From contig DFGI01000080.1 of the NCBI GenBank assembly GCA_002371705.1, positions 7,530-71,529 on the forward strand: a stretch of 64,000 bases of DNA, written 5' to 3'. The position numbers were made by a program, and so were the translations under genes. The notes under the pieces were generated by a model. It saw only the letters and a program-made list of their open reading frames with translations, was not told where the DNA came from and did no database searches. This document shows, in pieces, positions 5,223-40,198 of this stretch; positions within the stretch are counted from its first letter, which is position 1, and the number at the start of each line of letters is the position of its first letter. The DNA is from Bacteroidales bacterium UBA3754 (GTDB lineage: Bacteria; Bacteroidota; Bacteroidia; Bacteroidales; UBA1715).

Positions 5223-5996
5223 ATGGCCTTAACAAACATAGAAAAGCATTACAACAAGCACAACGAAGACCTTCGCTTGTGCCGACGGCATGGCATTGTG
5301 GAGTTCGAAACCACTATGTACCACCTGCGTCGGTTTTTGCAGCAGGGGCAGACAATCCTCGACGTTGGGGCGGGAACGGGACGATACTGCTCAGCACTGA
5401 TGGCTGAAGGTTATCGGGTGAAAGCCGTGGAACTCGTCCGCCGCAATATTGAAATGTTTCTCAAACGTGAACCCACGGCCGATGTGATTCAGGGCGATGC
5501 CAGAAATATGTCGCCTATAGCGACGGATTTTGCCGATGTTACGCTTTTGCTCGGTCCGCTGTACCATCTTATAGGCGACGACGAAAAACTAAAGGCACTG
5601 AACGAGACAAAACGCGTGACCAAGCCTGGAGGACTGATTTTTGTGGCGTATCTGATGAACGAATACAGCATTCTTTCGTATTGCTTCGACGAGGAAAGAA
5701 TCGAGGGGCTTTTGGCGCAAGGAGCTGTGGATAAGGATTTTCACGTGAGAGTTCAGGAGGGGGAATTGTACGACTACGTGCGTCTGGAAGACATAAACCG
5801 TCTTAACGAGAAAGCAGGTTTGGAACGTGTCACAATCTTTTCGCCTGAAGGAGCCGCCGACTATATGCGTACCCGCATCAATCACATGAGCGACGCGACA
5901 TTTGCCCGTTTCATCGAATACCAAAAATGCGTGTCGGAACGGCAGGAACTTATTGGAGCAGGCAGCCACGTGGTAGATGTGGTGCGTTGTTCATAA
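5223..5996 (+). CDS. Class I SAM-dependent methyltransferase
   Basis: Motif I ILDVGAGTGRY is followed by an acidic motif II (KAVELV) and a post-I/III pattern (GGLIFVAY). Confidence 0.85.
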   Translation: MALTNIEKHYNKHNEDLRLCRRHGIVEFETTMYHLRRFLQQGQTILDVGAGTGRYCSALMAEGYRVKAVELVRRNIEMFLKREPTADVIQGDARNMSPIATDFADVTLLLGPLYHLIGDDEKLKALNETKRVTKPGGLIFVAYLMNEYSILSYCFDEERIEGLLAQGAVDKDFHVRVQEGELYDYVRLEDINRLNEKAGLERVTIFSPEGAADYMRTRINHMSDATFARFIEYQKCVSERQELIGAGSHVVDVVRCS

Positions 5997-6046
5997 CTCG
6001 TAAATTATTCCTATTCAATAAATTCTTCCAAATTCATAGGAAAAAG

Positions 6047-6054
6047 TACCTTTG
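6047..6054 (+). promoter_or_regulatory. Candidate -7 promoter box (TAnnTTTG)
   Basis: tacctttg lies 23 nt upstream of the parE ATG. Confidence 0.35.
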
Positions 6055-6077
6055 CTACCAAATTCCGAACAGAATAA

Positions 6078-7937
6078 ATGGCAGAAATCGCAGAATATAC
6101 CGAAGAAAACATCAAGACCCTTGAGGGTGTGGAACATATACGGCTCCGTCCGGGTATGTACATCGGAAAATTAGGCGATGGTTCCCACTCCGACGACGGA
6201 ATTTATGTGCTGATAAAGGAAGTAATCGACAACTCCATTGATGAATTCCGTATGGGCGCGGGCAAAGTAATTGATGTGACCGTAAAGGACGGGAAAGTCC
6301 GTGTGCGCGACTATGGGCGCGGTATTCCGCTTGGAAAGCTTTTGGACTGCGTTTCTATTCTCAACACGGGTGCGAAATACGACTCAAAAGTTTTCAAAAA
6401 ATCAGTTGGGTTGAACGGTGTGGGTACAAAGGCCGTGAACGCATTATCATGGAAATTTTCCGCCCAATCGTTCCGCAACGGCGAAACGCGCCGCATTGAA
6501 TTTAAACAAGGTGTGCTTGCGAGCGACACCAATGTGATACAAGATGAGAGCAAATCACAAAACGGCACTCTTATTGAATTTGAACCCGATTCCAGCAAAG
6601 GTTTGTTCGAAAATTACGCATTCCACGACGATTTCATCGAAACGATGATGCGCAATTATTCGTATCTAAACACTGGACTTACAATCAATTACAACGGACA
6701 AAAATTTAATTCAAAAAATGGTCTTCTTGATTTGTTGACCGAAACATTTGCAAAAGATCAAATTGAGCCATTATATCCGATTATCCACCTCAAAGGCGAT
6801 GATATTGAAATTGCGCTGACGCACACTGAACAAAACGGAGAAGATTATTTTTCGTTTGTCAACGGTCAGCACACTATTCAAGGAGGAACGCACCAAGCAG
6901 CCTACCGTGAGGCAATTGGACGCACAATAAAGGAATTCTTCAACAAAAACCAGGAACTTGCCGACATCCGCAATGGCGTGGTTGGGGCTATTGCGCTCAA
7001 TGTGGAAGAACCTGTGTTCGAAAGCCAAACAAAAGTAAAACTTGGTTCACGCGATATGGCGCCAACTGAAGGCAGCATTTCGGTCAATAAGTTTGTGAAT
7101 GATTTTGTAAAACAGGAACTTGACGATTATCTGCATAAACACCCCGAAATCACCGAGGTGATGGCAAAGAAAATCCAAGATTCAGAAAAAGAACGCAAGG
7201 CAATTGATGTGGTGCGCAACAAAGCAATGACAAAGCGTGCGAGCTTGCACAACCGAAAACTCCGCGATTGCCGCATACACTACAACACGAACCACGAACT
7301 TCGCGACGAGACCTGTATTTTCATTACCGAAGGTGATTCGGCAAGCGGTTCAATCACAAAATCAAGAAACGCAGCCACACAGGCAGTGTTCAGTCTTCGA
7401 GGAAAACCGCTCAACGCTTATAAGAAAAAGCAAAAGGATATTTACGAAAACGAAGAGCTGAACCTTCTCCAAGCTGCATTGGATATTGAAGGTTCGTTGG
7501 AAAATCTTCGTTACAACAAGGTAATCATCGCAACCGATGCCGATGTTGACGGAATGCACATCCGTATGTTGTTGGTCTCATTCTTCTTAATGTATTGTCC
7601 GAACCTCATCCGCGAAGGACACGTATATATTTTGCAAACGCCACTATTCCGTGTCCGCAACAAGAAAATAACAAAATATTGCTATAGCGACGAGGAACGG
7701 CTTGCAGCCCTTAAAGCAATTTCCGACCCGGAAATCACTCGATTCAAAGGTTTGGGAGAAATTTCGCCAGATGAATTTTCGGTATTTATTGGGAAAGACA
7801 TACGTTTGGAACCCGTGGTTATCGACCACGACACGCAAATCAACGATATTCTCAGCTTCTATATGGGCGACAACACTCCCGAGCGACAGAATTTCATCAT
7901 CGAAAACTTGCGCATCGACACCGACGAGCTACGATAA
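6078..7937 (+). CDS. parE: Type IIA topoisomerase subunit B (DNA topoisomerase IV subunit B)
   Basis: [16 protein letters not shown], a GHKL ATPase N-terminus (EVIDNSIDE), the Toprim motifs TEGDSASG and DADVDGMHI. The 619-aa length fits Bacteroidetes ParE better than GyrB. Confidence 0.8.
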
Positions 7938-29573: not shown

Positions 29574-29581
29574 TACATTTG
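29574..29581 (+). promoter_or_regulatory. Candidate -7 promoter box (TAnnTTTG) for the Panacea gene pair
   Basis: tacatttg lies 33 nt upstream of the ATG at 29614, inside a 206-nt intergenic gap, the largest gap within the locus. Confidence 0.35.
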
Positions 29582-29613
29582 CATAAGAAAAATAACCACG
29601 CAAATAACACGTT

Positions 29614-30201
29614 ATGCAGAAATTAAAATATACCGATTCCGACAAACAAAAATTAGGGAACGCAATTGTGTATATTGCTAGTAAAACAACTGATTTAAGT
29701 AAGACAAAATTGCTTAAGTTGTTATTCTTTATGGAGGAATATAGCGTATGTCGTTTTCACACCCCATTTTTAGGTTTGCAATACGAAGTGTGGCAGGCAG
29801 GCCCTGTAATTAAGGATGTCTTTATAGACTTATCGGAAACACCTGTTTTGTTGGAAGGTTTTATTGAAAAAACAAATAAAGACGGGAATACCTATATAAA
29901 ATCAGCAAAAGTTTTTTCTGATGACGAATTTTCGGATAATGATTTGTTGGTAATGAATGAGATTATTGCCAAATATGGGAACAAAACAGCAACAGAATTG
30001 GTGAAAATTACACATAAAAAAGGATCTTTGTGGTATAACACAGCAAAACGAAATGATTTGCTTAATGCCTTTGAACAAAAGCAAATAAATAATTCGGATT
30101 GTGTTATTGACTTTGGAGAAGAGCTGTCGGGATGTAATCGCGAATTTTATAATGAACAGTTAAATTTTCTGCAAATATCCCGTCAATATGGAGCGCGATA
30201 G
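29614..30201 (+). CDS. Panacea (DUF4065, SocA-like) domain antitoxin
   Basis: KLGNAIVYIASKTTDLSKTKLLKLLFFMEEYSVCRFHTPFLGLQYEVWQAGPVIKDVF fits the DUF4065/Panacea pattern (K(L)LY/FF.d... aw..GPV). Confidence 0.75.
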   Translation: MQKLKYTDSDKQKLGNAIVYIASKTTDLSKTKLLKLLFFMEEYSVCRFHTPFLGLQYEVWQAGPVIKDVFIDLSETPVLLEGFIEKTNKDGNTYIKSAKVFSDDEFSDNDLLVMNEIIAKYGNKTATELVKITHKKGSLWYNTAKRNDLLNAFEQKQINNSDCVIDFGEELSGCNREFYNEQLNFLQISRQYGAR

Positions 30202-30643
30202 TAGATTTGAAAAAGGTTCCATATTGTATTTTTCGCCATTTATATTTGACAATGGTAATGCGCCCAAAAATAAATATTTTTTAGTGTTGCAGTGCACGGA
30301 ACAAAATGTTATCCTTGCTTCATTGCCAACTTCGCAAGATCATGTTCCAACTATGTTGGAAAAAACGCATGGTTGTATAAATCAATCGGATATAAATTTT
30401 AATTGTTACTTATTCGAGAAAGGAAGAGTGGTTTGCACAAATGGATTCTCTTTTCCCAAAGAAACTTATGTGTATGGCTTCCGATTACAATTGTTTGATT
30501 TGTATGTATTTGCGGTACAAGAAAACAATGATGAGACAAAAATAGAAGTAAAAGGCTGTTTGTCGGAAGAAGAATACAATGCTGTGGTTTTGTGTTTGAA
30601 AAACTCCTCATCAGTAAAGAGAAAATTTAAAGCAATGTTGTAA
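30188..30643 (+). CDS. Uncharacterised 151-aa protein, putative toxin partner of the Panacea antitoxin (possible MazF/PemK-like SH3-barrel fold)
   Basis: The ATG overlaps the antitoxin 3' end by 14 nt. KGSILYFSPF...KNKYFLVLQ...VILASLPTSQ resembles the strand layout of PemK/MazF toxins by eye only. Confidence 0.45.
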   Translation: MERDSRFEKGSILYFSPFIFDNGNAPKNKYFLVLQCTEQNVILASLPTSQDHVPTMLEKTHGCINQSDINFNCYLFEKGRVVCTNGFSFPKETYVYGFRLQLFDLYVFAVQENNDETKIEVKGCLSEEEYNAVVLCLKNSSSVKRKFKAML

Positions 30644-30648
30644 CTTTG
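30641..30648 (+). promoter_or_regulatory. Candidate -7 promoter box (TAnnTTTG) for the phosphonate module
   Basis: taactttg overlaps the TAA stop of the 151-aa ORF and lies 45 nt upstream of the ATG at 30693. Confidence 0.3.
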
Positions 30649-30692
30649 ACCGTTCCAAAAGGAATGGTCTGTTCAAGCAAAATATAGTATAG

Positions 30693-32702
30693 ATGAAGGC
30701 ATTGATTTTGAATTCCGGGTTAGGTTGCCGAATGGGTGTGATAACAAAAGAACACCCCAAATGTATGACCGAAATATCGCATACTGACACCATTTTAAGC
30801 CGGCAACTGAAACAACTGGTATCGTTTGGCATTGAGGAAGTTGTGATGACCACGGGATATTATGATGATGTTCTGGTTGATTATTGCAATGTGTTGCATC
30901 TTCCGCTGAAATTCACGTTTGTGAATAATCCTTTATACGACCAAACAAATTATATCTATAGTATTTACTGTGCGAAAGAACACTTGCGGAACGACGATAT
31001 TATTCTGATGCATGGCGACTTGGTGTTCGAGAATTTAGTAATGGAAGCTGTTGTTGATTCTCCGAACAGCTGTATGGTGGTAAGCAGCTCGCTCCCTTTG
31101 CCTGAAAAGGATTTCAAGGCGGTTGTCACCAATGGACGAATTGAAAAAATTGGCATAGAATTTTTTGAAAATGCCGTGGCGGCGCAACCATTATACAAAA
31201 TCAAAAAAGAAGATTGGTTGGTTTGGCTGGGAAATATTGAAACATTTTGCGAGAACAACAACCGCAAGTGCTATGCGGAGAATGCGTTCAACGAGGTTTC
31301 CAATCAATGCAACATATATCCGTGCGATGTACACGATATGCTTTGTGCGGAGATTGACACTCCTGAAGATTTGAAAATCGTAAGCGAAAAACTGGTGGCG
31401 GTCAACGAACGGACGGTGTATATGTGTTTTTCCACAGAATATATCCATTCCGGGCATACGGCAATCATCAACAAGGCTCGTCGTTTGGGACGCTTGATAA
31501 TCGGAATCCTCTCCGACGAGGCGGTTGCAAGCTACAAACGATTTCCGTTGATACCATTTGAGGAACGTAAGGCTCTATTTGAAAACATTGCCGGCGTGGA
31601 ACGGGTTGTGGAACAAAAAATGTTGTCGTATGCCGAAAATCTTCGCTGGCTGAAGCCCGATTATGTGGTGCACGGAAACGATTGGGTTGAGGGTTTCCAG
31701 AAACCGATTCGTCAGGAAGTGTGCGATGTGTTGTCGGAATATGGCGGTAAACTGGTGGAATATCCTTATACCAATAACCCAAAATATAAGGAATTGGACG
31801 CAAACCATCGTTCCGAAGCCTCTATGCCCGACGTGCGGCGGGGAAGGTTGCGTAAACTCATCAATATGAAGGGTTTAGTGACAGCTTTGGAAGCGCACAG
31901 CGGCATTACGGGTTTGATTGTTGAAAACACCAAAGTGCTTCAGGACGGAAAAACCTACCAATTCGACGCAATGTGGGTTTCGTCGCTTTGCGATTCAACG
32001 GCGAAAGGAAAACCCGACATTGAGCTGGTTGATATGACATCGCGTTTCCGTACCATCGACGATATTATGGAGGTTACTACCAAACCTATCATTTTCGACG
32101 GCGATACGGGAGGTTTGACGGAGCATTTTGTTTATACTGTCCGTTCTTTGGAACGTATGGGCGTTTCTATGGTTATCATAGAAGACAAGACTGGATTGAA
32201 GAAAAATTCCCTATTTGGCACCGAAGTTAAGCAAACGCAGGCATCCATTCCTGATTTTTGCGAAAAGATTCGGGCGGGAAAAAATTCCCAAAAGACCAAA
32301 GAATTTATGATTTGCGCGCGTATTGAATCACTGATTTTGGAACGAGGAATGGCCGATGCGTTGGAACGTGCCTTTGCTTTCAGTGAGGCTGGCGCTGATG
32401 CCATTATGATTCATTCACGCAAAAAGGACCCCTCGGAAATTTTTGAATTTGTGGAAAAATTCCGCGAAAAAAATACCACAACACCAATAGTGGTCGTTCC
32501 AACATCGTTTAACACGGTGACGGAAGCGGAATTCAAAAAACGTGGCGTAAATGTCGTTATTTATGCAAACCAACTCACACGCACGGGATTTCCTGCAATG
32601 CAGGACGCGGCCCGAACAATTTTGGAGAACCACCGTGCTAAGGAATGCGACGATAAATGTATGTCTATCAAGGATATAATCACATTGATTCCTGAAGAAT
32701 AA
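30693..32702 (+). CDS. aepX: Triple-domain protein: LicC/PntC-like NTP-transferase + HxGH cytidylyltransferase-like domain + phosphoenolpyruvate mutase
   Basis: aa 1-235: MKALILNSGLGCRMG... (sugar/phospho-alcohol nucleotidyltransferase). aa ~240-370: VYMCFSTEYIHSGHTAIINKARRLGRLIIGILSDE (HxGH). aa ~385-669: ALEAHSGITGLIVEN...FDAMWVSSLCDSTAKGKPD...IIEDK (PEP mutase/isocitrate-lyase superfamily). Confidence 0.85.
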   Translation: MKALILNSGLGCRMGVITKEHPKCMTEISHTDTILSRQLKQLVSFGIEEVVMTTGYYDDVLVDYCNVLHLPLKFTFVNNPLYDQTNYIYSIYCAKEHLRNDDIILMHGDLVFENLVMEAVVDSPNSCMVVSSSLPLPEKDFKAVVTNGRIEKIGIEFFENAVAAQPLYKIKKEDWLVWLGNIETFCENNNRKCYAENAFNEVSNQCNIYPCDVHDMLCAEIDTPEDLKIVSEKLVAVNERTVYMCFSTEYIHSGHTAIINKARRLGRLIIGILSDEAVASYKRFPLIPFEERKALFENIAGVERVVEQKMLSYAENLRWLKPDYVVHGNDWVEGFQKPIRQEVCDVLSEYGGKLVEYPYTNNPKYKELDANHRSEASMPDVRRGRLRKLINMKGLVTALEAHSGITGLIVENTKVLQDGKTYQFDAMWVSSLCDSTAKGKPDIELVDMTSRFRTIDDIMEVTTKPIIFDGDTGGLTEHFVYTVRSLERMGVSMVIIEDKTGLKKNSLFGTEVKQTQASIPDFCEKIRAGKNSQKTKEFMICARIESLILERGMADALERAFAFSEAGADAIMIHSRKKDPSEIFEFVEKFREKNTTTPIVVVPTSFNTVTEAEFKKRGVNVVIYANQLTRTGFPAMQDAARTILENHRAKECDDKCMSIKDIITLIPEE

Positions 32703-32729
32703 GTTCCATGAACCTATAGTATTTGAAAT

Positions 32730-34973
32730 ATGATACAGCCAAAATTTTTCTATGATACACTATCATCGTATGGCATTAATTTCTTTGCTGGCGTGCCCGA
32801 TTCATTGTTGAAGAATCTATGCGCCTACATCACCGACCATGCCGACGATTCCCATAACATTATTGCCGCTAACGAAGGAGGTGCAATGGGACTTGCAGCC
32901 GGGCACTATCTGGCAACGGGACAGATTCCTGTTGTATATATGCAGAATAGTGGTGAAGGAAATATCATCAATCCGCTTGCGTCACTCACCGACCCCGATG
33001 TGTATAATATACCCGTGCTGCTGGTGATTGGTTGGCGAGGCAAACCGGGCGTTCACGACGAGCCACAGCACGTTAAACAAGGGAAAATCACCACCGACTT
33101 ACTTTCTGTGATGGGTGTTGATTTTTCAGTCCTTTCAAAAGACGAGGAAACCGCGGCGGAACAAATAAAAAAGGCTGTTGCATATATGCGCGACACAAAA
33201 CAGTGTTACGCTTTGGTGATTGAAAAAGACACATTTGACAGCTATCAATTGTCTAAATCCGATTCGCAGGCGGGGCTTTCCCTTTCACGGGAGGAGGCTA
33301 TTCAAACAGTTGCCGCCGCTCTTGGCGAAAAAGATGCCATAGTTTCTACCACAGGTATGATTTCGCGCGAGTTGTTTGAATACCGCACAGCAATGAATCA
33401 AGGCCACGAACGCGATTTTTTGACCGTTGGTTCCATGGGACATGCTTCGCAAATTGCGTTGGGCATCGCGCTGGAGAAACCAGATCGTGGCGTTTGGTGC
33501 TTCGACGGCGATGGCGCGGCGATTATGCACATGGGAAGTATGGCGATTGTGGCGCAGAAATCACCTAAAAATTACGTGCATGTTGTTTTTAACAATGGTG
33601 CGCACGATTCCGTCGGCGGTCAGCCAACGGTTGGCTTAAAAATCAACATTCCTGCCATAGCCAAGGCTGTGGGCTACAAACACGCCTTTTCTGTGGAAAC
33701 AAAAGATGACTTGCTGAAACAGTTGGCAAAGGTCCGTCTGCTTTTAGTAAATGACGAGGGACCGATTTTTCTTCAGGTTTGCGTGAAAAAAGGGAACCGT
33801 AAGGATTTGGGACGTCCTACCACAACACCAATACAAAATAAAGAAGCATTAATGGATTTCCTAAAAAAAATAAGTATGCAACAAATAGTTGACGGCATTG
33901 GGACACTACAAACAGTTCTTGCAGGAAGCAAGAAAATTTTTCTTGTTTGTGGCCATTCGTTTTCTTCGTTAAGCATCAAAAACGATTTTGAAAATGTGCA
34001 TATTCCGTATGTGAAATTCGATAGTTTCACACCAAATCCATCGTATGACGAAGTTTGTAACGGCATTGATGTGTTCAATGCGGAAAACTGCGACACCATT
34101 GTGGCTATTGGCGGTGGGAGTTGTATGGATGTTGCAAAATGTATAAAATTATTTTGCCGAATGTCGAAAGATAAACCGTATTTGGAGCAGGAATACTCCG
34201 ACACGGGAATCCCGTTGATTGCCATTCCCACAACAGCGGGTTCAGGAAGCGAAAGCACTCGTTTTGCGGTTATTTATTACGAAGGCAAAAAACAAAGTGT
34301 AACGCACGAAAGCATCATTCCCAATGTGGCGATTTTAGAGCCAAGCGTATTGAAGCCATTGCCTCTCTATCAAAAAAAATGTACGCTGATGGATGCGCTT
34401 TGTCAGGGAATTGAGGCCTGGTGGTCGGTAAATTCAACTGATGGCAGCAAACGGTTGTCAAAACAAGCCGTGGAAACAATCATGCACTGGTGGCGGGAAT
34501 ATATTTTCGAAAACAGCGATGAATCGGCAAAACATATTATGCAGGCTGCAAATCTTGCCGGGCAAGCCATTTGTATAACCCAAACCACAGCAGCCCACGC
34601 GTTTAGCTATAAAATAACGTCATTGTATAATATTCCTCACGGATACGCCGTGGCTGTTTGTTTGCCCAAAATATGGCGATATATGGCGGCGAACCTCAAC
34701 AAGTGCGTTGACACACGGGGGGAAAACTATGTGGAGCAGATTTTCACCGATATTGCTACGGCAATGGGGTTCGAAAATGTACCAGCTGCGATTGACGGAT
34801 TTGAACACATTCTAACAGAAATGGCTTTGGTAAATCCCACTTCAGACACACGTCGTCGAAGCGCAGAAATAGAGGTATTATCCACGTCGGTGAATCCAAT
34901 CCGATTGAAAAACAATCCCATTGAACTCGACAACGACGCAATTAGAAGTTTGTATGAACAAATAATTTTGTGA
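32730..34973 (+). CDS. aepY: Fusion of phosphonopyruvate decarboxylase (ThDP-dependent) and iron-containing (group III) alcohol dehydrogenase, a probable phosphonoacetaldehyde reductase
   Basis: aa 1-380: YGINFFAGVPDSLLK..., GSMGHASQIALGIAL, CFDGDGAAIMHMG...NNGAHDS (ThDP motif). aa 383-747: VAIGGGSCMDVAKCI, LIAIPTTAGSGSE (Fe-ADH motifs). The junction runs through an A8 tract. Confidence 0.8.
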   Translation: MIQPKFFYDTLSSYGINFFAGVPDSLLKNLCAYITDHADDSHNIIAANEGGAMGLAAGHYLATGQIPVVYMQNSGEGNIINPLASLTDPDVYNIPVLLVIGWRGKPGVHDEPQHVKQGKITTDLLSVMGVDFSVLSKDEETAAEQIKKAVAYMRDTKQCYALVIEKDTFDSYQLSKSDSQAGLSLSREEAIQTVAAALGEKDAIVSTTGMISRELFEYRTAMNQGHERDFLTVGSMGHASQIALGIALEKPDRGVWCFDGDGAAIMHMGSMAIVAQKSPKNYVHVVFNNGAHDSVGGQPTVGLKINIPAIAKAVGYKHAFSVETKDDLLKQLAKVRLLLVNDEGPIFLQVCVKKGNRKDLGRPTTTPIQNKEALMDFLKKISMQQIVDGIGTLQTVLAGSKKIFLVCGHSFSSLSIKNDFENVHIPYVKFDSFTPNPSYDEVCNGIDVFNAENCDTIVAIGGGSCMDVAKCIKLFCRMSKDKPYLEQEYSDTGIPLIAIPTTAGSGSESTRFAVIYYEGKKQSVTHESIIPNVAILEPSVLKPLPLYQKKCTLMDALCQGIEAWWSVNSTDGSKRLSKQAVETIMHWWREYIFENSDESAKHIMQAANLAGQAICITQTTAAHAFSYKITSLYNIPHGYAVAVCLPKIWRYMAANLNKCVDTRGENYVEQIFTDIATAMGFENVPAAIDGFEHILTEMALVNPTSDTRRRSAEIEVLSTSVNPIRLKNNPIELDNDAIRSLYEQIIL

Positions 34974-34977
34974 TGCA

Positions 34978-36108
34978 ATGACACATGTTTTACACATATC
35001 CCAGGCTGATGGCGGTGTAGCTGTTTATCTGCAAATGTTGTTAAAGCATTTGGACAAACAGAAAATCACCAACAGTTTGGTGTGTGCCCAGCAATTCATT
35101 TCCGACGATTTCACGCCGTTAATTTCTGATTTTCAGCAAATTGAAATGGTTCGTGAGATTTCTCCCAAAAAAGATTTGCAGGCTGTGTTTCGTCTTCGGA
35201 AATGTATCAAACAGGTGAATCCCGATATTGTATATTGCCACAGCAGCAAAGCTGGCGCATTGGGAAGGCTTGCCGTGCTGGGAATGCGGAAACCCGTGGT
35301 GTATAATGCGCACGGATGGGCGTTCAATATGAAATGTTCACGAACTAAAGTGTTGATTTACAAATACGTGGAGAAAATTTTGGCATATTTCACGGATACA
35401 ATCATCTGCATTTCCGATTTTGAAAAAGAATCCGCTTTACGAAACGGCGTGGGTAATCAACAAAAGTTGCATGTAATCTACAATGGTGTTGATGTTGAGG
35501 CAATTGAGACAAATATTTCCACAACGAAACTGTCACGAAATCAATTGAATATCCCCGAAAATGCCTTTGTGGTGGGAATGATTGGACGAATTTCCGACCA
35601 AAAAGCCCCCGATTCATTTGTAAAAATGGCGGAGATAATCAAACGTTCTATTCCCGAAGCGTTTTTTGTTATTGTAGGCGACGGTCCCGATAGAGCGGAA
35701 ATTGAATCAATGATTCAAGCGAAAGGGTTACACGATTCGTTTTTCATTTCTGGTTGGGTATCGAATCCCAACGATTATATGGCGTTGTTCGATGTGGGCG
35801 TGTTGCTTTCGCGGTGGGAAGGCTTCGGCTATGCCATTGTGGAATATATGGTGGCGAAGAAACCTGTTGTGGCAACCCGTGTCGATGCGATTCCCAACAT
35901 TGTGGAAACCGGGAAAAATGGTCTTCTTGTTGCGGTTGATGATTTTGAAGATGCCGCGGCACAAGTCATACGGCTACATTCCAGCAGCGAATTGCGTAAC
36001 ACATTGATAGCCAACGGCTACGGACTCGCCTGCCGACGGTTCTCTATTCAACGTGTTGCAAAAGAACACGAAGATTTGTTTGATGCGTTACAAAATAGAG
36101 GCAAATAA
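34978..36108 (+). CDS. Glycosyltransferase family 4 (GT-B)
   Basis: VLHISQADGGVAVY..., VGMIGRISDQKAPDSFV, LLSRWEGFGYAIVEYMVAKKPVVATRVDAIPNIV. Confidence 0.8.
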   Translation: MTHVLHISQADGGVAVYLQMLLKHLDKQKITNSLVCAQQFISDDFTPLISDFQQIEMVREISPKKDLQAVFRLRKCIKQVNPDIVYCHSSKAGALGRLAVLGMRKPVVYNAHGWAFNMKCSRTKVLIYKYVEKILAYFTDTIICISDFEKESALRNGVGNQQKLHVIYNGVDVEAIETNISTTKLSRNQLNIPENAFVVGMIGRISDQKAPDSFVKMAEIIKRSIPEAFFVIVGDGPDRAEIESMIQAKGLHDSFFISGWVSNPNDYMALFDVGVLLSRWEGFGYAIVEYMVAKKPVVATRVDAIPNIVETGKNGLLVAVDDFEDAAAQVIRLHSSSELRNTLIANGYGLACRRFSIQRVAKEHEDLFDALQNRGK

Positions 36109-36127: not shown

Positions 36128-39100
36128 TTATTCCACCACAACTTTCACCGCCTTGTTGCCGACAATCACAATGTAGATGCCTTTTTCAACATTGAATGAT
36201 TTAACAGCTTCGTTGTTTCCTTTGGCACGGACGATTGTCTGACCAATAGCGTTGCAGATTACAATCTGATTTTCTCCAGCATTTTCAACTACGATTGCGT
36301 TGTGTGCCGCATACACGTTCACAGGTTTTTCTTCTACAAAAGAAATTGCTGTTTTGTTTTCAACTTCGGCAATGTTGCTGATTGCCAAATTGAACGGCCC
36401 ACTTTCTGCTTTTACGAATGGATCGTTAATATCAATCGTATTAGGCAATTCAACGCCGACATAATATGAGATGGTTCCTTGTGCAGGTTGTAAATCGGTG
36501 TAAGTCAATACACTTGAATTGACTTTCTTGATTTCTTCCACGCCATCTTTCGTTACACGGAAAATGGAGTATGTCAAGAAATCGAATCCTTCGTATGCCG
36601 TCCACGAAAGGTTGTTTTCGGTGCCGATACTTTTGTTTTTCTGTAAATGTATCGTTTTGTGGCTTGGACTCAGCTCCGATTGCTTTCCGCAGTTGTCGGT
36701 AGCCGAAATCTTATATCGGTACGGAAATTCAAGACTGTTGGCAGTCACATCAACGTAGATGCTTGTCTCGTTATATTGCACGTCGTCTAATTTTACATAT
36801 TCACCTAATCTTTCTGTTTCTCGGTATATTGTGTAAAAGTCGATTGCCTCCGATGCTTCTTTTTGCCAGATAATCAAGTTGTACGGCGATTGTTCCTGAC
36901 TTACCGACACCAAAGCCAATTCTGGTTGATATTTGAACGATTCATATTTGATTTCTGTTTCATCGGTTATCGTACAACCGTAATAATCGGTAATGGTGAA
37001 CGTGTATGTGCCTTCCGCCAAGTTCTCACGTTTCAAATCAGTGCTTCCATCCTCCCACGAATATTCAACTGGCTCGTTTCCTTTTTCATACGAAATTGTG
37101 ATTTCGCCCACATCGTGGCCGCAGATTGCATTTTTGAAATCTTTGGTAAGGACTGGCTTGTTGCTTTCGTCTTTGGTCAATTCCGCATAGTTGGTGTATT
37201 CACAGCCGTATGTGTCGGTCACCTTTAATTTATACGTTCCTGCCGAAAGTCCATTCTGGTCTTTTGAGATAACATCCGATGAATGTCGCCACATAAATTT
37301 TATTTCGTCAATTTGGAATTGCATTGAGCTTTGATATTCTTCCGCTCCTCGGTACGACCAGTAGAAATTCTTAGGAGCAAAACCTTCATCGAAATAATAT
37401 GTTACCAAAGTCCAGTCTTCGTGTTTTGGTATTGTTCTCGTGAACATATCTTCTCCCATGGCTCGAAATTCGATATTCTCACCCTTGTGGTAGAACGAAA
37501 TTCCATCAACTAAACTTGTCATACCGCCAAGTTCAGCACCTATATAGGTATATAATCCTGCCAAGTCGCCCATGATGTTTTTGCTTATCGACGATGCTTT
37601 TATAATTACAGAATGAGCTGTTCCCAACGCACCGTCGTCTGCAATTCCCGAACCGTCGGTTTTTGTGGTTCCTCCGTAATTGGCATCGTTGAATATGATA
37701 AAGTTAGTGTATATCTCGTTTGTTAATCCATCTTCAAAATTACTAACAAGTTCTGGCTGAATAGTACTCCACGTAAACGAATATGGCTCCGTTCCGCTTT
37801 TGACGGTTGTAGTGATTTCTCCATTTTGGGTTTCACAGATAGGATTTTTTATGTCGAATGAAAATTTAGGCAAAACGTTGTAATTCTTTTCAAGTGTGGC
37901 AGTTTCCGATGTGGCACAACCGTATGCGTCGGTAACGGTTAGGGTATATTCGCCTTCTGCCAGATTTTCTCTGTCTTTGTCGGTTGCACCGTCAGACCAT
38001 TTGTAGGTGTATGGTTCAGCTCCTTCACCCACCGTTGCTGTAATGGTACCGTTTTCAGTTTCGCAGATAGGATTTGTTGATGTCAATTCAACAGAAGGCA
38101 CAACAGAGAAATCTTTGTTCAAAGATGTTGTTGCGATTGTCTTACATCCATAACTGTCGGTTACGGAGAACATGTATTGACCAGCAGCTAAATTTTGCAC
38201 CTCTTTTTCCGATGAGAACGATTCGGCATCGTCGTCGTATGCCAAAATGGATAGTTCGTCTATCCAGAAATCAGGATTGGTATTTATATTCCAGTATATT
38301 TCACTTATGTATGGTATTTGATATGGTGCAATATTCATTTCTTGCCATGAAAGGTCAACTTTCGTCCAATCGCTATGATACGGAATTGTGAAATTCCCAT
38401 TTGATTCATAACCATCAATAGAGATATTGAATTCAGCCGACGAACCTTTGTGGTAGAACGAAACCCCGTAAGAGTTAGATGTCGCGTGGTTTAAAGATAG
38501 TTCATCGGATAGATATAATTGCAGTAGGTATATTACATTGTCATTTTCATTACCTTGTACGTGAATAGCTTGTTCAGAGCTGGCTGCACCACTATTTTCG
38601 ATGGGAATATCAATCATGGAATAATCTCCATTTTCTATGTAGATTTCCCATAGATAGAATTGGTTGTTGGTTATCCCATTTTCAAAGTTCTCAAACGTGG
38701 ATTCTTTTATCTTTGTCTTGCCCCAATTATAGGTATATGGTTCTGTTCCTTCGCTCACCGTTGCTGTAATTGTACCATTTTCTGTCTCGCAAATTGGATC
38801 GGTAGGATCCAACGAAATCTGTGGCATATTGTCATCGATAGGCGAAAGGGTAACGTATGTTCTATCCGAAGTATATCCTTCTGCATCTGTGGCAACAAAA
38901 TAATATTCTCCAGCTGTCATTCTAGTACGAGGATTGTCGGTGTTATCATCGTTCCAAAGTATGGTGTATGGACCAACGCCGTTGATTACATCAAAAGAAG
39001 CCGAACCTGTTGCCGAGGTACAGATTGGTTTTACTGTTTCTAAATTGAGAATTTTGGGCTTTTTGCCAAATGTAGCTATAAACGAAGTGTCTTTTGTTAC

Positions 39101-40198
39101 TGTTATGGTACGTGGGTTTTCCTTATTGCCATCGTTCCAACTGCCAAATTGGTAATCGCTCTCGTTTGTTGACGTTGCCGTTAAAACCATTGTAAATTCA
39201 TCGTCGCAGGCATTCTCCAACTCAATAGTGACAACTCCATATTCAGAGTTTGATGAACTTACGGAAAATTTATGCGATGAGGTTGCCAAGTTTGATTTGT
39301 ATGGTATCCAATCCTCGTCGTTCATATAATTTTCAATCGCGTCACATGGCACGTAGATTTTGACATCCTCAGGGAAAGCATTTTCTCCTAAAGCAGGAGG
39401 AGTTTGTGATTCAATAAAGATAGTATGTAAATTTTCACAATTATTAAATGCGTCCACATCAATATCTATTACAGAAGCAGGAATAACAATTGACGTGAGA
39501 CTTTTACAAGATTGAAACGATTCTTTCCCAATAGTGGTAAGGGTATTAGGGAAAGCTATGGAAGACAAGCTGTAACAGCTTGAAAATGTACTTTCTCTGA
39601 TTTTAGTAAGACCATCGGGAAGTTTTACTGATTTCAGATTATAACAGAGATAGAATACGGACGTACCCATTGTAGTGACGGAGTTTGGAATTTCTATAGA
39701 TTCCAAATTTTCACAACCCCAAAACAGACCTTCACAGAGATTTGTAAGGGAGTTTGAAAGCGTTATGGATTGTAGATTTTTACACTCTGCAAACGCATAG
39801 TTAAGTTCCTCAAGGGAATTAGGAAGTACAACGTTTTTTAATTTAGTACATGATTGAAATGCCTGGTCTCCAATAACCTTGACACCTTCTTGTATTGTTA
39901 CAGATGTTAATTTCGTGCAATTGTAAAAAGGTCGATCGTATCTTTTCCCGACTCCTATCACAGTGTACGTTTCCCCATCGTATTCCACTGTTCCAGGAAT
40001 AATCAAATCTCCAACTGGTGGATTTTCATACGGCTCATTTGTGTTTTTTTCATAAGTTACATTAACTGTTTTATCTTCTTGAGAAATAATGTCGTAATAT
40101 AACATGTGTCCACTTGGACTTTCAGCCGAAAATTGATACGCATTTGCCTGAACTGCCGCAAAAACGGCTACCAATAAAGGGAAGAAAAGTTTTTTCAT
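36128..40198 (-). CDS. 1356-aa cell-surface protein: BspA-type leucine-rich repeats, five SprB-like repeat modules, two paralogous ~150-aa beta-sandwich-like inserts, Fn3-like domains and a T9SS C-terminal sorting domain
   Basis: Signal peptide MKKLFFPLLVAVFAAVQANA. LRR_5-type repeats (IPNSVTTMGTSVFYLCYNLKSVKLPDGLTKI...). Repeated NPICETENGTITATV.EG.EPYTY.W ... L..G.Y...VTD.YGC modules. The C-terminus is ...KGIYIVIVGNKAVKVVVE, typical of Por_Secre_tail. Confidence 0.8.
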   Translation of the reverse strand: MKKLFFPLLVAVFAAVQANAYQFSAESPSGHMLYYDIISQEDKTVNVTYEKNTNEPYENPPVGDLIIPGTVEYDGETYTVIGVGKRYDRPFYNCTKLTSVTIQEGVKVIGDQAFQSCTKLKNVVLPNSLEELNYAFAECKNLQSITLSNSLTNLCEGLFWGCENLESIEIPNSVTTMGTSVFYLCYNLKSVKLPDGLTKIRESTFSSCYSLSSIAFPNTLTTIGKESFQSCKSLTSIVIPASVIDIDVDAFNNCENLHTIFIESQTPPALGENAFPEDVKIYVPCDAIENYMNDEDWIPYKSNLATSSHKFSVSSSNSEYGVVTIELENACDDEFTMVLTATSTNESDYQFGSWNDGNKENPRTITVTKDTSFIATFGKKPKILNLETVKPICTSATGSASFDVINGVGPYTILWNDDNTDNPRTRMTAGEYYFVATDAEGYTSDRTYVTLSPIDDNMPQISLDPTDPICETENGTITATVSEGTEPYTYNWGKTKIKESTFENFENGITNNQFYLWEIYIENGDYSMIDIPIENSGAASSEQAIHVQGNENDNVIYLLQLYLSDELSLNHATSNSYGVSFYHKGSSAEFNISIDGYESNGNFTIPYHSDWTKVDLSWQEMNIAPYQIPYISEIYWNINTNPDFWIDELSILAYDDDAESFSSEKEVQNLAAGQYMFSVTDSYGCKTIATTSLNKDFSVVPSVELTSTNPICETENGTITATVGEGAEPYTYKWSDGATDKDRENLAEGEYTLTVTDAYGCATSETATLEKNYNVLPKFSFDIKNPICETQNGEITTTVKSGTEPYSFTWSTIQPELVSNFEDGLTNEIYTNFIIFNDANYGGTTKTDGSGIADDGALGTAHSVIIKASSISKNIMGDLAGLYTYIGAELGGMTSLVDGISFYHKGENIEFRAMGEDMFTRTIPKHEDWTLVTYYFDEGFAPKNFYWSYRGAEEYQSSMQFQIDEIKFMWRHSSDVISKDQNGLSAGTYKLKVTDTYGCEYTNYAELTKDESNKPVLTKDFKNAICGHDVGEITISYEKGNEPVEYSWEDGSTDLKRENLAEGTYTFTITDYYGCTITDETEIKYESFKYQPELALVSVSQEQSPYNLIIWQKEASEAIDFYTIYRETERLGEYVKLDDVQYNETSIYVDVTANSLEFPYRYKISATDNCGKQSELSPSHKTIHLQKNKSIGTENNLSWTAYEGFDFLTYSIFRVTKDGVEEIKKVNSSVLTYTDLQPAQGTISYYVGVELPNTIDINDPFVKAESGPFNLAISNIAEVENKTAISFVEEKPVNVYAAHNAIVVENAGENQIVICNAIGQTIVRAKGNNEAVKSFNVEKGIYIVIVGNKAVKVVVE

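Follow-up and report, generated by a model that had tools for sequence, protein, structure and literature searches.

A candidate Panacea toxin–antitoxin module with a partner of predicted MazF fold in a glycan locus of an uncultured Bacteroidales bacterium

Two overlapping genes lie within a string of glycan-biosynthetic genes of Bacteroidales bacterium UBA3754 (assembly GCA_002371705.1, contig DFGI01000080.1, positions 7,530 to 71,529 of the forward strand; this whole stretch of 64,000 nucleotides (nt) is referred to as the window). The first encodes a protein of 195 amino acids (aa) with a Panacea (DUF4065) domain and the second a protein of 151 aa. The question raised by this locus is whether the two genes form a toxin–antitoxin (TA) module and, if so, what kind of toxin the second protein would be. 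The Panacea domain was named by Kurata et al. (2022, PNAS, PMC8832971), who predicted 1,268 pairs of Panacea antitoxin (PanA) and partner toxin (PanT) with 88 toxin clusters, reported that PanA complexes with PanT and found two validated PanTs to be related to EndoA/PemK/MazF by HHpred. The present analysis indicates that the pair in the window is probably a chromosomal type II PanAT module, in which PanA comes first and is followed by a translationally coupled PanT with a MazF fold and an insertion of about 25 residues.

The Panacea gene, its overlapping partner and the fold of the partner

The candidate antitoxin gene, panA, occupies positions 29614–30201 (+) and the candidate toxin gene, panT, positions 30188–30643 (+). 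The end of panA and the start of panT share 14 nt (30188–30201), exactly as reported in a preliminary description of this DNA, which had also assigned a DUF4065/Panacea domain to the 195-aa protein. This assignment was borne out by a match of PanA to Pfam PF13274 (SocA_Panacea, formerly DUF4065) at 71.2 bits, well above the cutoff of 25.7 (E=1.7e-19), which spans the whole model (1–113 of 113) and places the Panacea core at PanA residues 33–141 (nt 29710–30036, +). The NCBI annotation names the antitoxin of the window a 'SocA family protein'. Because the score against the NCBIfam SocA equivalog (NF047745) falls far below its cutoff, at 44.1 of the 190 bits needed, PanA is classed on profile comparison as a Panacea protein but not as an orthologue of SocA.

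A tail of approximately 55 residues extends past the Pfam domain (residues 142–195; nt 30037–30198, +) and carries a family-conserved S/T-D-x-x-I-D-F motif. In the window this motif reads CVIDFGEEL, which resembles the tail of Escherichia coli MazE, ENIDWGEP (MazE sequence verified against the PDB). The likeness is a lead on how PanA might neutralise its partner rather than a test of it. Sequence searches of the PDB found no solved relative of PanA. According to Ernits et al. (2023, PMC10440598), PanA neutralises by way of the Panacea core or of elements appended to it, one of which is a Phd-like C-terminal extension.

The 151-aa protein was described earlier as devoid of transmembrane segments, and the maximum Kyte–Doolittle mean over 19 residues (0.87) agrees with this. 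An AlphaFold2 model of PanT, based on a 38-sequence alignment, was a compact beta-rich globule of high confidence (pLDDT 93.1, pTM 0.87) with strands at residues 11–18, 27–36 and 40–45 and a helix, SEEEYNAVVLCLKN, at residues 127–138; the strand layout and C-terminal helix that had been named from the sequence are present in this model. When the model was compared with the PDB by Foldseek, ranks 1–25 were all MazF/Kid/PemK/EndoA structures, with probabilities of 0.8–1.0 (at least 0.9 for 23 of them) and target-normalised TM-scores of 0.51–0.64. The best match was MazF of Staphylococcus aureus (4mzp_A; E=2.5e-3, probability 1.0, target-normalised TM-score 0.62). Leading matches in BFVD, a set of predicted viral structures, were PemK-like phage endoribonucleases. 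In its predicted structure PanT is thus a MazF/PemK SH3-like barrel, whose strand order and C-terminal helix match those of these toxins. An SH3-like fold of the MazF/PemK/CcdB kind had been guessed for this protein, and the guess was correct at fold level because the Foldseek matches of the high-confidence model are MazF/Kid/PemK, with CcdB weaker.

The fold is shared by CcdB, a gyrase poison rather than an RNase, and three CcdB structures (7epj, 2vub and 7epg) were among the Foldseek matches with probabilities of 0.4–0.6. However, these appeared only from rank 30 on, at E values of approximately 1, behind 25 matches that were all MazF/Kid. Killing by CcdB needs the C-terminal residues Trp99-Gly100-Ile101, through which GyrA is bound, whereas PanT contains no Trp and ends in KAML. 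A CcdB-like action of PanT on gyrase is highly improbable.

A conserved two-gene locus in Bacteroidota

A search of 5.8 billion proteins detected 72 homologues of PanT, all unnamed or 'hypothetical', and the named ones were all from Bacteroidota. Among 1.84 billion cluster representatives (clusters at 50 % identity), 501 belonged to the PanT family by profile search (E up to 1e-3). Many of the 150 PanT-family matches listed were complete proteins of about 140–175 aa, and shorter fragments were also present.

The pair had initially been put forward as a candidate new PanA/PanT combination, a claim that had to be given up. Dataset S1 of PMC8832971 lists a predicted PanAT pair of Flavobacterium urumqiense CGMCC 1.9230, with PanA WP_103998234.1 and PanT WP_103998233.1, in cluster T8 ('MazF'), with gene order A|T and a gap of 1. 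One of the loci collected here (L028) comes from F. urumqiense CGMCC 1.9230; the gap there is again 1 nt, and the encoded 144-aa protein is identical to WP_103998233.1. This protein has 37 % identity to PanT of the window (BLASTP, E=2e-33), and the F. urumqiense PanA has 42 % identity to PanA of the window (E=2e-49). As the T8-listed F. urumqiense pair is homologous to both window proteins, the family has already been catalogued as a predicted MazF-like PanT, and by this homology PanT of the window belongs to the published T8 cluster.

Gene neighbourhoods were surveyed for 43 loci from metagenomes and species-representative genomes; a locus search seeded with a 12-sequence sub-alignment contributed to this set. 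A PanA homologue was located directly upstream of PanT, on the same strand, in 38 of the 43 loci, with gaps of −23 to +6 nt where the genes were intact. The five exceptions were two contig ends (L003 and L026), one artefact of ORF calling in which PanA is present (L030) and two degraded copies (L033 and L037). These loci span Bacteroidales, Flavobacteriales, Sphingobacteriales and others, and have the form by which Kurata et al. recognised such modules, i.e. a conserved two-gene locus in several species with the partner no more than 100 nt away. Flanking genes differed by lineage and included aminotransferase/DHquinase genes, a two-component system, ClpX/ProRS, Fic/RadC, integrase/Wzi, QueC/SurE and sugar dehydrogenases. 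The 151-aa family is therefore consistently paired with Panacea in otherwise unrelated contexts, and such unrelated flanks beyond the pair form the pattern of a mobile two-gene unit. One member (L013, 5463–6758) adjoins a tyrosine integrase and mobile-element genes, with Wzi on the other side, and another (L012, 5785–6885) adjoins Fic and RadC genes. These two settings would fit a pair that is carried on mobile DNA or in defence islands.

Pairwise identities of PanA and PanT were correlated across loci (Spearman 0.60), a value reached by 0 of 2000 Mantel permutations. Among closer relatives dN/dS was 0.03–0.12 for PanA and 0.07–0.16 for PanT, with dS near saturation; from these codon comparisons, both genes are under purifying selection. 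Four loci had a disrupted toxin gene but kept PanA. The toxin had a frameshift and a stop in the isolate genome of F. xueshanense (L034, 2927–3357), was frameshifted in a Sphingobacteriales metagenome-assembled genome (MAG; L035, 2980–3425) and had lost residues 22–84 by an in-frame deletion in Proteiniphilum (L043, 2938–3204), while PanA remained full-length, at 193–200 aa, in all three despite the broken toxin. In a MAG from horse faeces (L038, 2586–3545), the toxin contained an insertion of approximately 470 nt flanked by duplicated codons 82–93, with the two halves stored as separate database proteins (P0032 and P0070), and PanA was shortened to 174 aa. No intact toxin without PanA was detected among the 43 loci. 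If disruption were proportional to gene length, the probability of four out of four events striking the shorter gene would be about 0.03–0.04. This one-sided decay is the asymmetry that would be expected if unopposed PanT were harmful; the support is modest because assembly errors in MAGs could contribute.

Weighing the toxin assignment

A series of observations weighs against the assignment of the pair as a PanAT module with a MazF-type toxin. Pfam scans of the 38 family members found nothing, with no PF02452 (PemK_toxin) match even at E values up to 10, and PADLOC models gave no match to PanA or PanT at E values up to 1. A search of PDB sequences with the PanT-family profile found no MazF match, and the 118 matches from a search of proteins with this profile included 0 with any Pfam domain. 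Comparison of the PanT family by hhalign with MazF alignments of three and five sequences gave E values of 0.24–0.68; this MazF profile was thin (3–5 sequences, checked against the PDB), and a search made to deepen it returned only NdoA proteins more than 93 % identical to one another. The structural matches had modest Foldseek E values (1e-3 to 1e-1) and query-normalised TM-scores of 0.43–0.50. The permissive hhalign alignment sets K29 of PanT on R25 of Bacillus subtilis MazF and T48 on its T48, but is non-significant, and the invariant Cys pair and the His of PanT have no counterpart in MazF. In Table S1 of PMC8832971, the T8 toxin ('MazF') of Flavobacterium xanthum, the only one from Bacteroidota with a published test, was not toxic in E. 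coli. A T5 MazF-like PanT of Chryseobacterium bovis was toxic, and because its PanA was toxic as well, neutralisation could not be shown for C. bovis. The F. xanthum row adjoins the rows of F. aquatile and F. urumqiense in Dataset S1, and on account of these adjacent rows the F. xanthum toxin is likely to belong to the subfamily of the window PanT.

PanT itself had no credible match in Pfam, NCBIfam, PADLOC, PHROGs or PDB sequences. As judged by sequence and profile comparison, it has diverged from canonical MazF past the point of recognition. A match of PanT to the Pfam PH domain SOS1_NGEF_PH (E=0.043) was below the cutoff and was dismissed as chance.

One reading that accommodates the lack of toxicity of the F. 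xanthum T8 protein in E. coli (PMC8832971), and the failure to find a canonical MazF sequence signature in the PanT family, is that the two genes are a conserved module but not a growth-arresting TA system, with PanT acting as a non-toxic partner of PanA that binds nucleic acid or a ligand, e.g. as a regulator or a phage-component-specific sensor–effector. We regard this as unlikely. Disruptions strike the toxin and not the antitoxin, the genes are in a tight, overlapping, antitoxin-first order and their genomic distribution is patchy and mobile. Moreover, real toxins are commonly harmless in a heterologous host, as 8 of the 16 pairs in Table S1 of PMC8832971, including SocB, were not toxic.

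Residue conservation was assessed in an alignment of 38 closer PanT sequences (A1) and an alignment of 53 diverse members (A3). K29 and S49 were at least 90 % conserved in A3, and T48 was at least 90 % conserved in A1, with Thr or Ser at this position in most of the divergent sequences that A3 adds. The catalytic residues of MazF, Arg at R25 (B. subtilis) or R29 (E. coli) and Thr at T48 or T52, respectively, would correspond to K29 and T48. This equivalence is treated as presumptive because the alignment is not statistically significant. The same permissive alignment is colinear, with the C-terminal helices aligned and residues ~52–78 of PanT inserted relative to canonical MazF. In the model this insertion (30341–30421, +) is a beta-hairpin with H61, G62, C63 and C73. 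C63 and C136 were invariant and G62 at least 90 % conserved in A3, and H61 was at least 90 % conserved in A1. C136 (codon at nt 30593–30595, +) is located in the C-terminal helix, and the insertion hairpin probably pairs with this residue.

The conservation of these Cys and His residues, their placement in an insertion and a helix where they are absent from or unconserved in MazF, and the presumed replacement of the catalytic Arg of MazF by Lys could also mean that PanT is a MazF scaffold with a different chemistry or regulation at C63/C136 and H61. These would then form a metal site, a redox switch or a Cys–His catalytic pair, and the target would not be subject to MazF-type mRNA cleavage. 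This is quite improbable given the conservation of K29 and T48-S49 at what are presumed to be the active-site positions, and given that conserved Cys/His clusters of small cytoplasmic proteins mostly serve as structural zinc sites.

For the preferred reading, a type II PanAT module, we infer PanT toxicity, RNase chemistry, the neutralisation interface and a benefit to the glycan locus as follows. Free PanT would be a sequence-specific endoribonuclease that arrests translation, with K29 and T48/S49 taking the places of the catalytic Arg and Thr of MazF. PanA would block PanT by direct binding, using either the Panacea core or, as in MazE, the conserved acidic I-D-F tail. Transcription of the pair would start at its own TAnnTTTG promoter, and read-through of the glycan operon would probably contribute as well. 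The possible gain for the glycan locus would be that a mosaic locus is stabilised post-segregationally or that phages trigger abortive infection.

Setting in the glycan locus and relation to known systems

A Bacteroidetes-type −7 box (TAnnTTTG), TACATTTG, was found by motif scan at 29574–29581 (+), 40 nt 5' of the panA ATG, and a second TAnnTTTG box, TAACTTTG, at 30641–30648 (+), where it overlaps the panT stop codon and lies 45 nt 5' of the ATG of the phosphoenolpyruvate (PEP) mutase gene. An own −7 box for the pair and a further box after it had been described previously; both are present, whereas their role as promoters is a prediction from sequence, with comparative support for the panA box. 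As the motif is no commoner in the 64-kb window (78 matches) than in shuffles (73±9), i.e. is not enriched, a single box has little evidential weight. Among related loci, a TAnnTTTG box was located no more than 160 nt upstream of the Panacea ORF in 25 of 30, where approximately 10 % would be expected at the window-wide rate. TACATTTG is probably the own promoter of the panAT module, and TAACTTTG is a candidate promoter of the downstream phosphonate genes rather than a part of the TA module. No intrinsic-terminator-like site was detected flanking the pair, a search of the 206 nt upstream for an operator or palindrome gave just short imperfect repeats and an Rfam scan gave one sub-threshold match, ascribed to chance.

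The pair was said to interrupt a glycan-biosynthetic gene string, and the neighbours on both sides are indeed glycan or phosphonate genes. Upstream are genes for a GT2, an IspD-like cytidylyltransferase, an epimerase, a CDP-glycerol glycerophosphotransferase, a GT1, a pyruvyl transferase and an FrhB-like protein, and downstream are genes for a nucleotidyltransferase–PEP mutase fusion, a phosphonopyruvate decarboxylase/Fe-alcohol dehydrogenase (Fe-ADH) and a GT4. Each of the four closest lineages has the pair in a different polysaccharide locus, and more distant members occur elsewhere. The pair is between pyruvyl transferase/FrhB and PEP mutase in the lineage at 99 % identity (window and L046–L053), between an acetyltransferase and epimerases at 85 % identity (L044), after a WecG-type transferase at 69 % identity (L045) and between GT4 and PDDEXK/GT2 at 56 % identity (L001). 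The last of these loci has an AAA-ATPase_like/PDDEXK_9 gene after the PanAT pair (5634–7196), which makes two non-glycan inserts at this position. In L046/L047 (1–5220), the closest relatives, the pyruvyl transferase and FrhB-like gene pair is tandemly duplicated upstream of the TA genes, and is present in a single copy in the window.

The G+C content of the upstream glycan genes (24.5–30.7 kb) was 0.29–0.40 and that of the phosphonate and GT4 genes (31–36 kb) was 0.40–0.50, compared with 0.33 for the panAT pair and 0.40 for the whole window; the step up occurs at ~30650–31000. This suggests, from base composition, that the locus is a mosaic of recombined cassettes with the panAT pair at a seam. 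No empty-site allele, i.e. the glycan locus without the pair, was found, as all seven of the seven contigs with an identical PEP-mutase protein carry the pair. Nothing specific on DUF4065 or TA modules in capsule loci of Bacteroides came up in a literature search. The module may stabilise glycan cassettes, may merely ride with them or may defend against phages. A more far-reaching proposal is that the Bacteroidota T8 branch is a distinct toxin family, in which a MazF scaffold has acquired the Cys/His insertion (H61-G62-C63, C73 and C136) as a metal or redox switch or a new active site, and that the module, lodged repeatedly where modules meet within various glycan loci of Bacteroidales from rumen and gut, is functionally tied to capsule loci through addiction of mosaic cassettes or abortive infection triggered by capsule-targeting phages. 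We consider this combination improbable.

Other variation was observed in the neighbouring genes. The region at 30693–36108 encodes a phosphonate branch, in which PEP mutase, joined to two nucleotidyltransferase domains, is followed by phosphonopyruvate decarboxylase and Fe-ADH; this suggests that the polysaccharide is phosphonate-decorated, perhaps with hydroxyethylphosphonate. At 33863–33870, within the ORF at 32730–34973, the window has a tract of eight A residues where near-identical contigs have seven. With A7, a TAA stop separates the phosphonopyruvate decarboxylase (380 aa) from the Fe-alcohol dehydrogenase (365 aa), whereas A8 fuses both into a 747-aa ORF; either slipped-strand variation or an error in sequencing would account for the difference. 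The glycan locus is followed at 36128–40198 (−) by a gene for a 1,356-aa LRR_5/SprB-repeat/DUF6383 surface protein. Strains with identical neighbours have in this slot a protein of 3,465 aa (FBA/Ig domains), two proteins of 364 and 978 aa or one of 1,093 aa, and the position is a hypervariable slot.

The features that go beyond the literature compared are that the family is missed by current profile libraries, that it has an invariant Cys/His insertion, that its decay is one-sided and that it is lodged in distinct glycan loci. If PanT is active, a well-populated branch of about 500 clusters at 50 % identity would be added to the MazF superfamily, restricted to Bacteroidota as far as the named matches show. 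The PanT family is annotated everywhere as 'hypothetical protein' because the Pfam, NCBIfam and PADLOC models miss it entirely, and with a family model Bacteroidota from gut, rumen and marine sources would be better annotated. A concrete structural question is posed by the invariant Cys pair, and the recurrence of the module in variable glycan loci would allow one to ask whether a TA module stabilises capsule cassettes or hitch-hikes with them. In conceptual terms the advance is modest, because neutralisation of MazF-like toxins by Panacea has already been published.

The closest known system is cluster T8 of the PanAT catalogue (also T5 and T6; PMC8832971), in which a Panacea-only PanA ('noNTD') likewise comes first and a small toxin follows, most of the listed T8 pairs being separated by −26 to +5 nt. 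The pair in the window differs in its origin from an uncultured Bacteroidales bacterium and its location in a glycan locus. In addition, the T8 representative that was matched to PemK by HHpred (99.66 %; PMC8832971) is a Pseudomonas protein, whereas the Bacteroidota subfamily gave no sequence or profile match to PemK here. SocAB, a type VI TA system of Caulobacter, is alike in that SocA carries a Panacea domain, but PanA scores 44 bits against the 190 of the SocA equivalog its partner has a predicted MazF fold and is not SocB, and no evidence points to neutralisation by a ClpXP-adaptor mode. Compared with MazEF/PemIK/Kis-Kid (PF02452), PanA is a Panacea protein and not an AbrB/MazE-fold DNA binder, and PanT is longer (151 aa versus about 110), has a Cys/His-bearing insertion and a Lys in the presumed place of Arg, and gives no PF02452 signal. 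The likenesses to MazEF/PemIK/Kis-Kid lie in the predicted toxin fold, the strand order, the C-terminal helix and the antitoxin-first, overlapping genes, together with an IDFGE tail motif of PanA that resembles the IDWGE of the MazE tail. By the colinear but non-significant alignment, a conserved Lys and Thr-Ser would also stand at the positions of the catalytic Arg and Thr of MazF.

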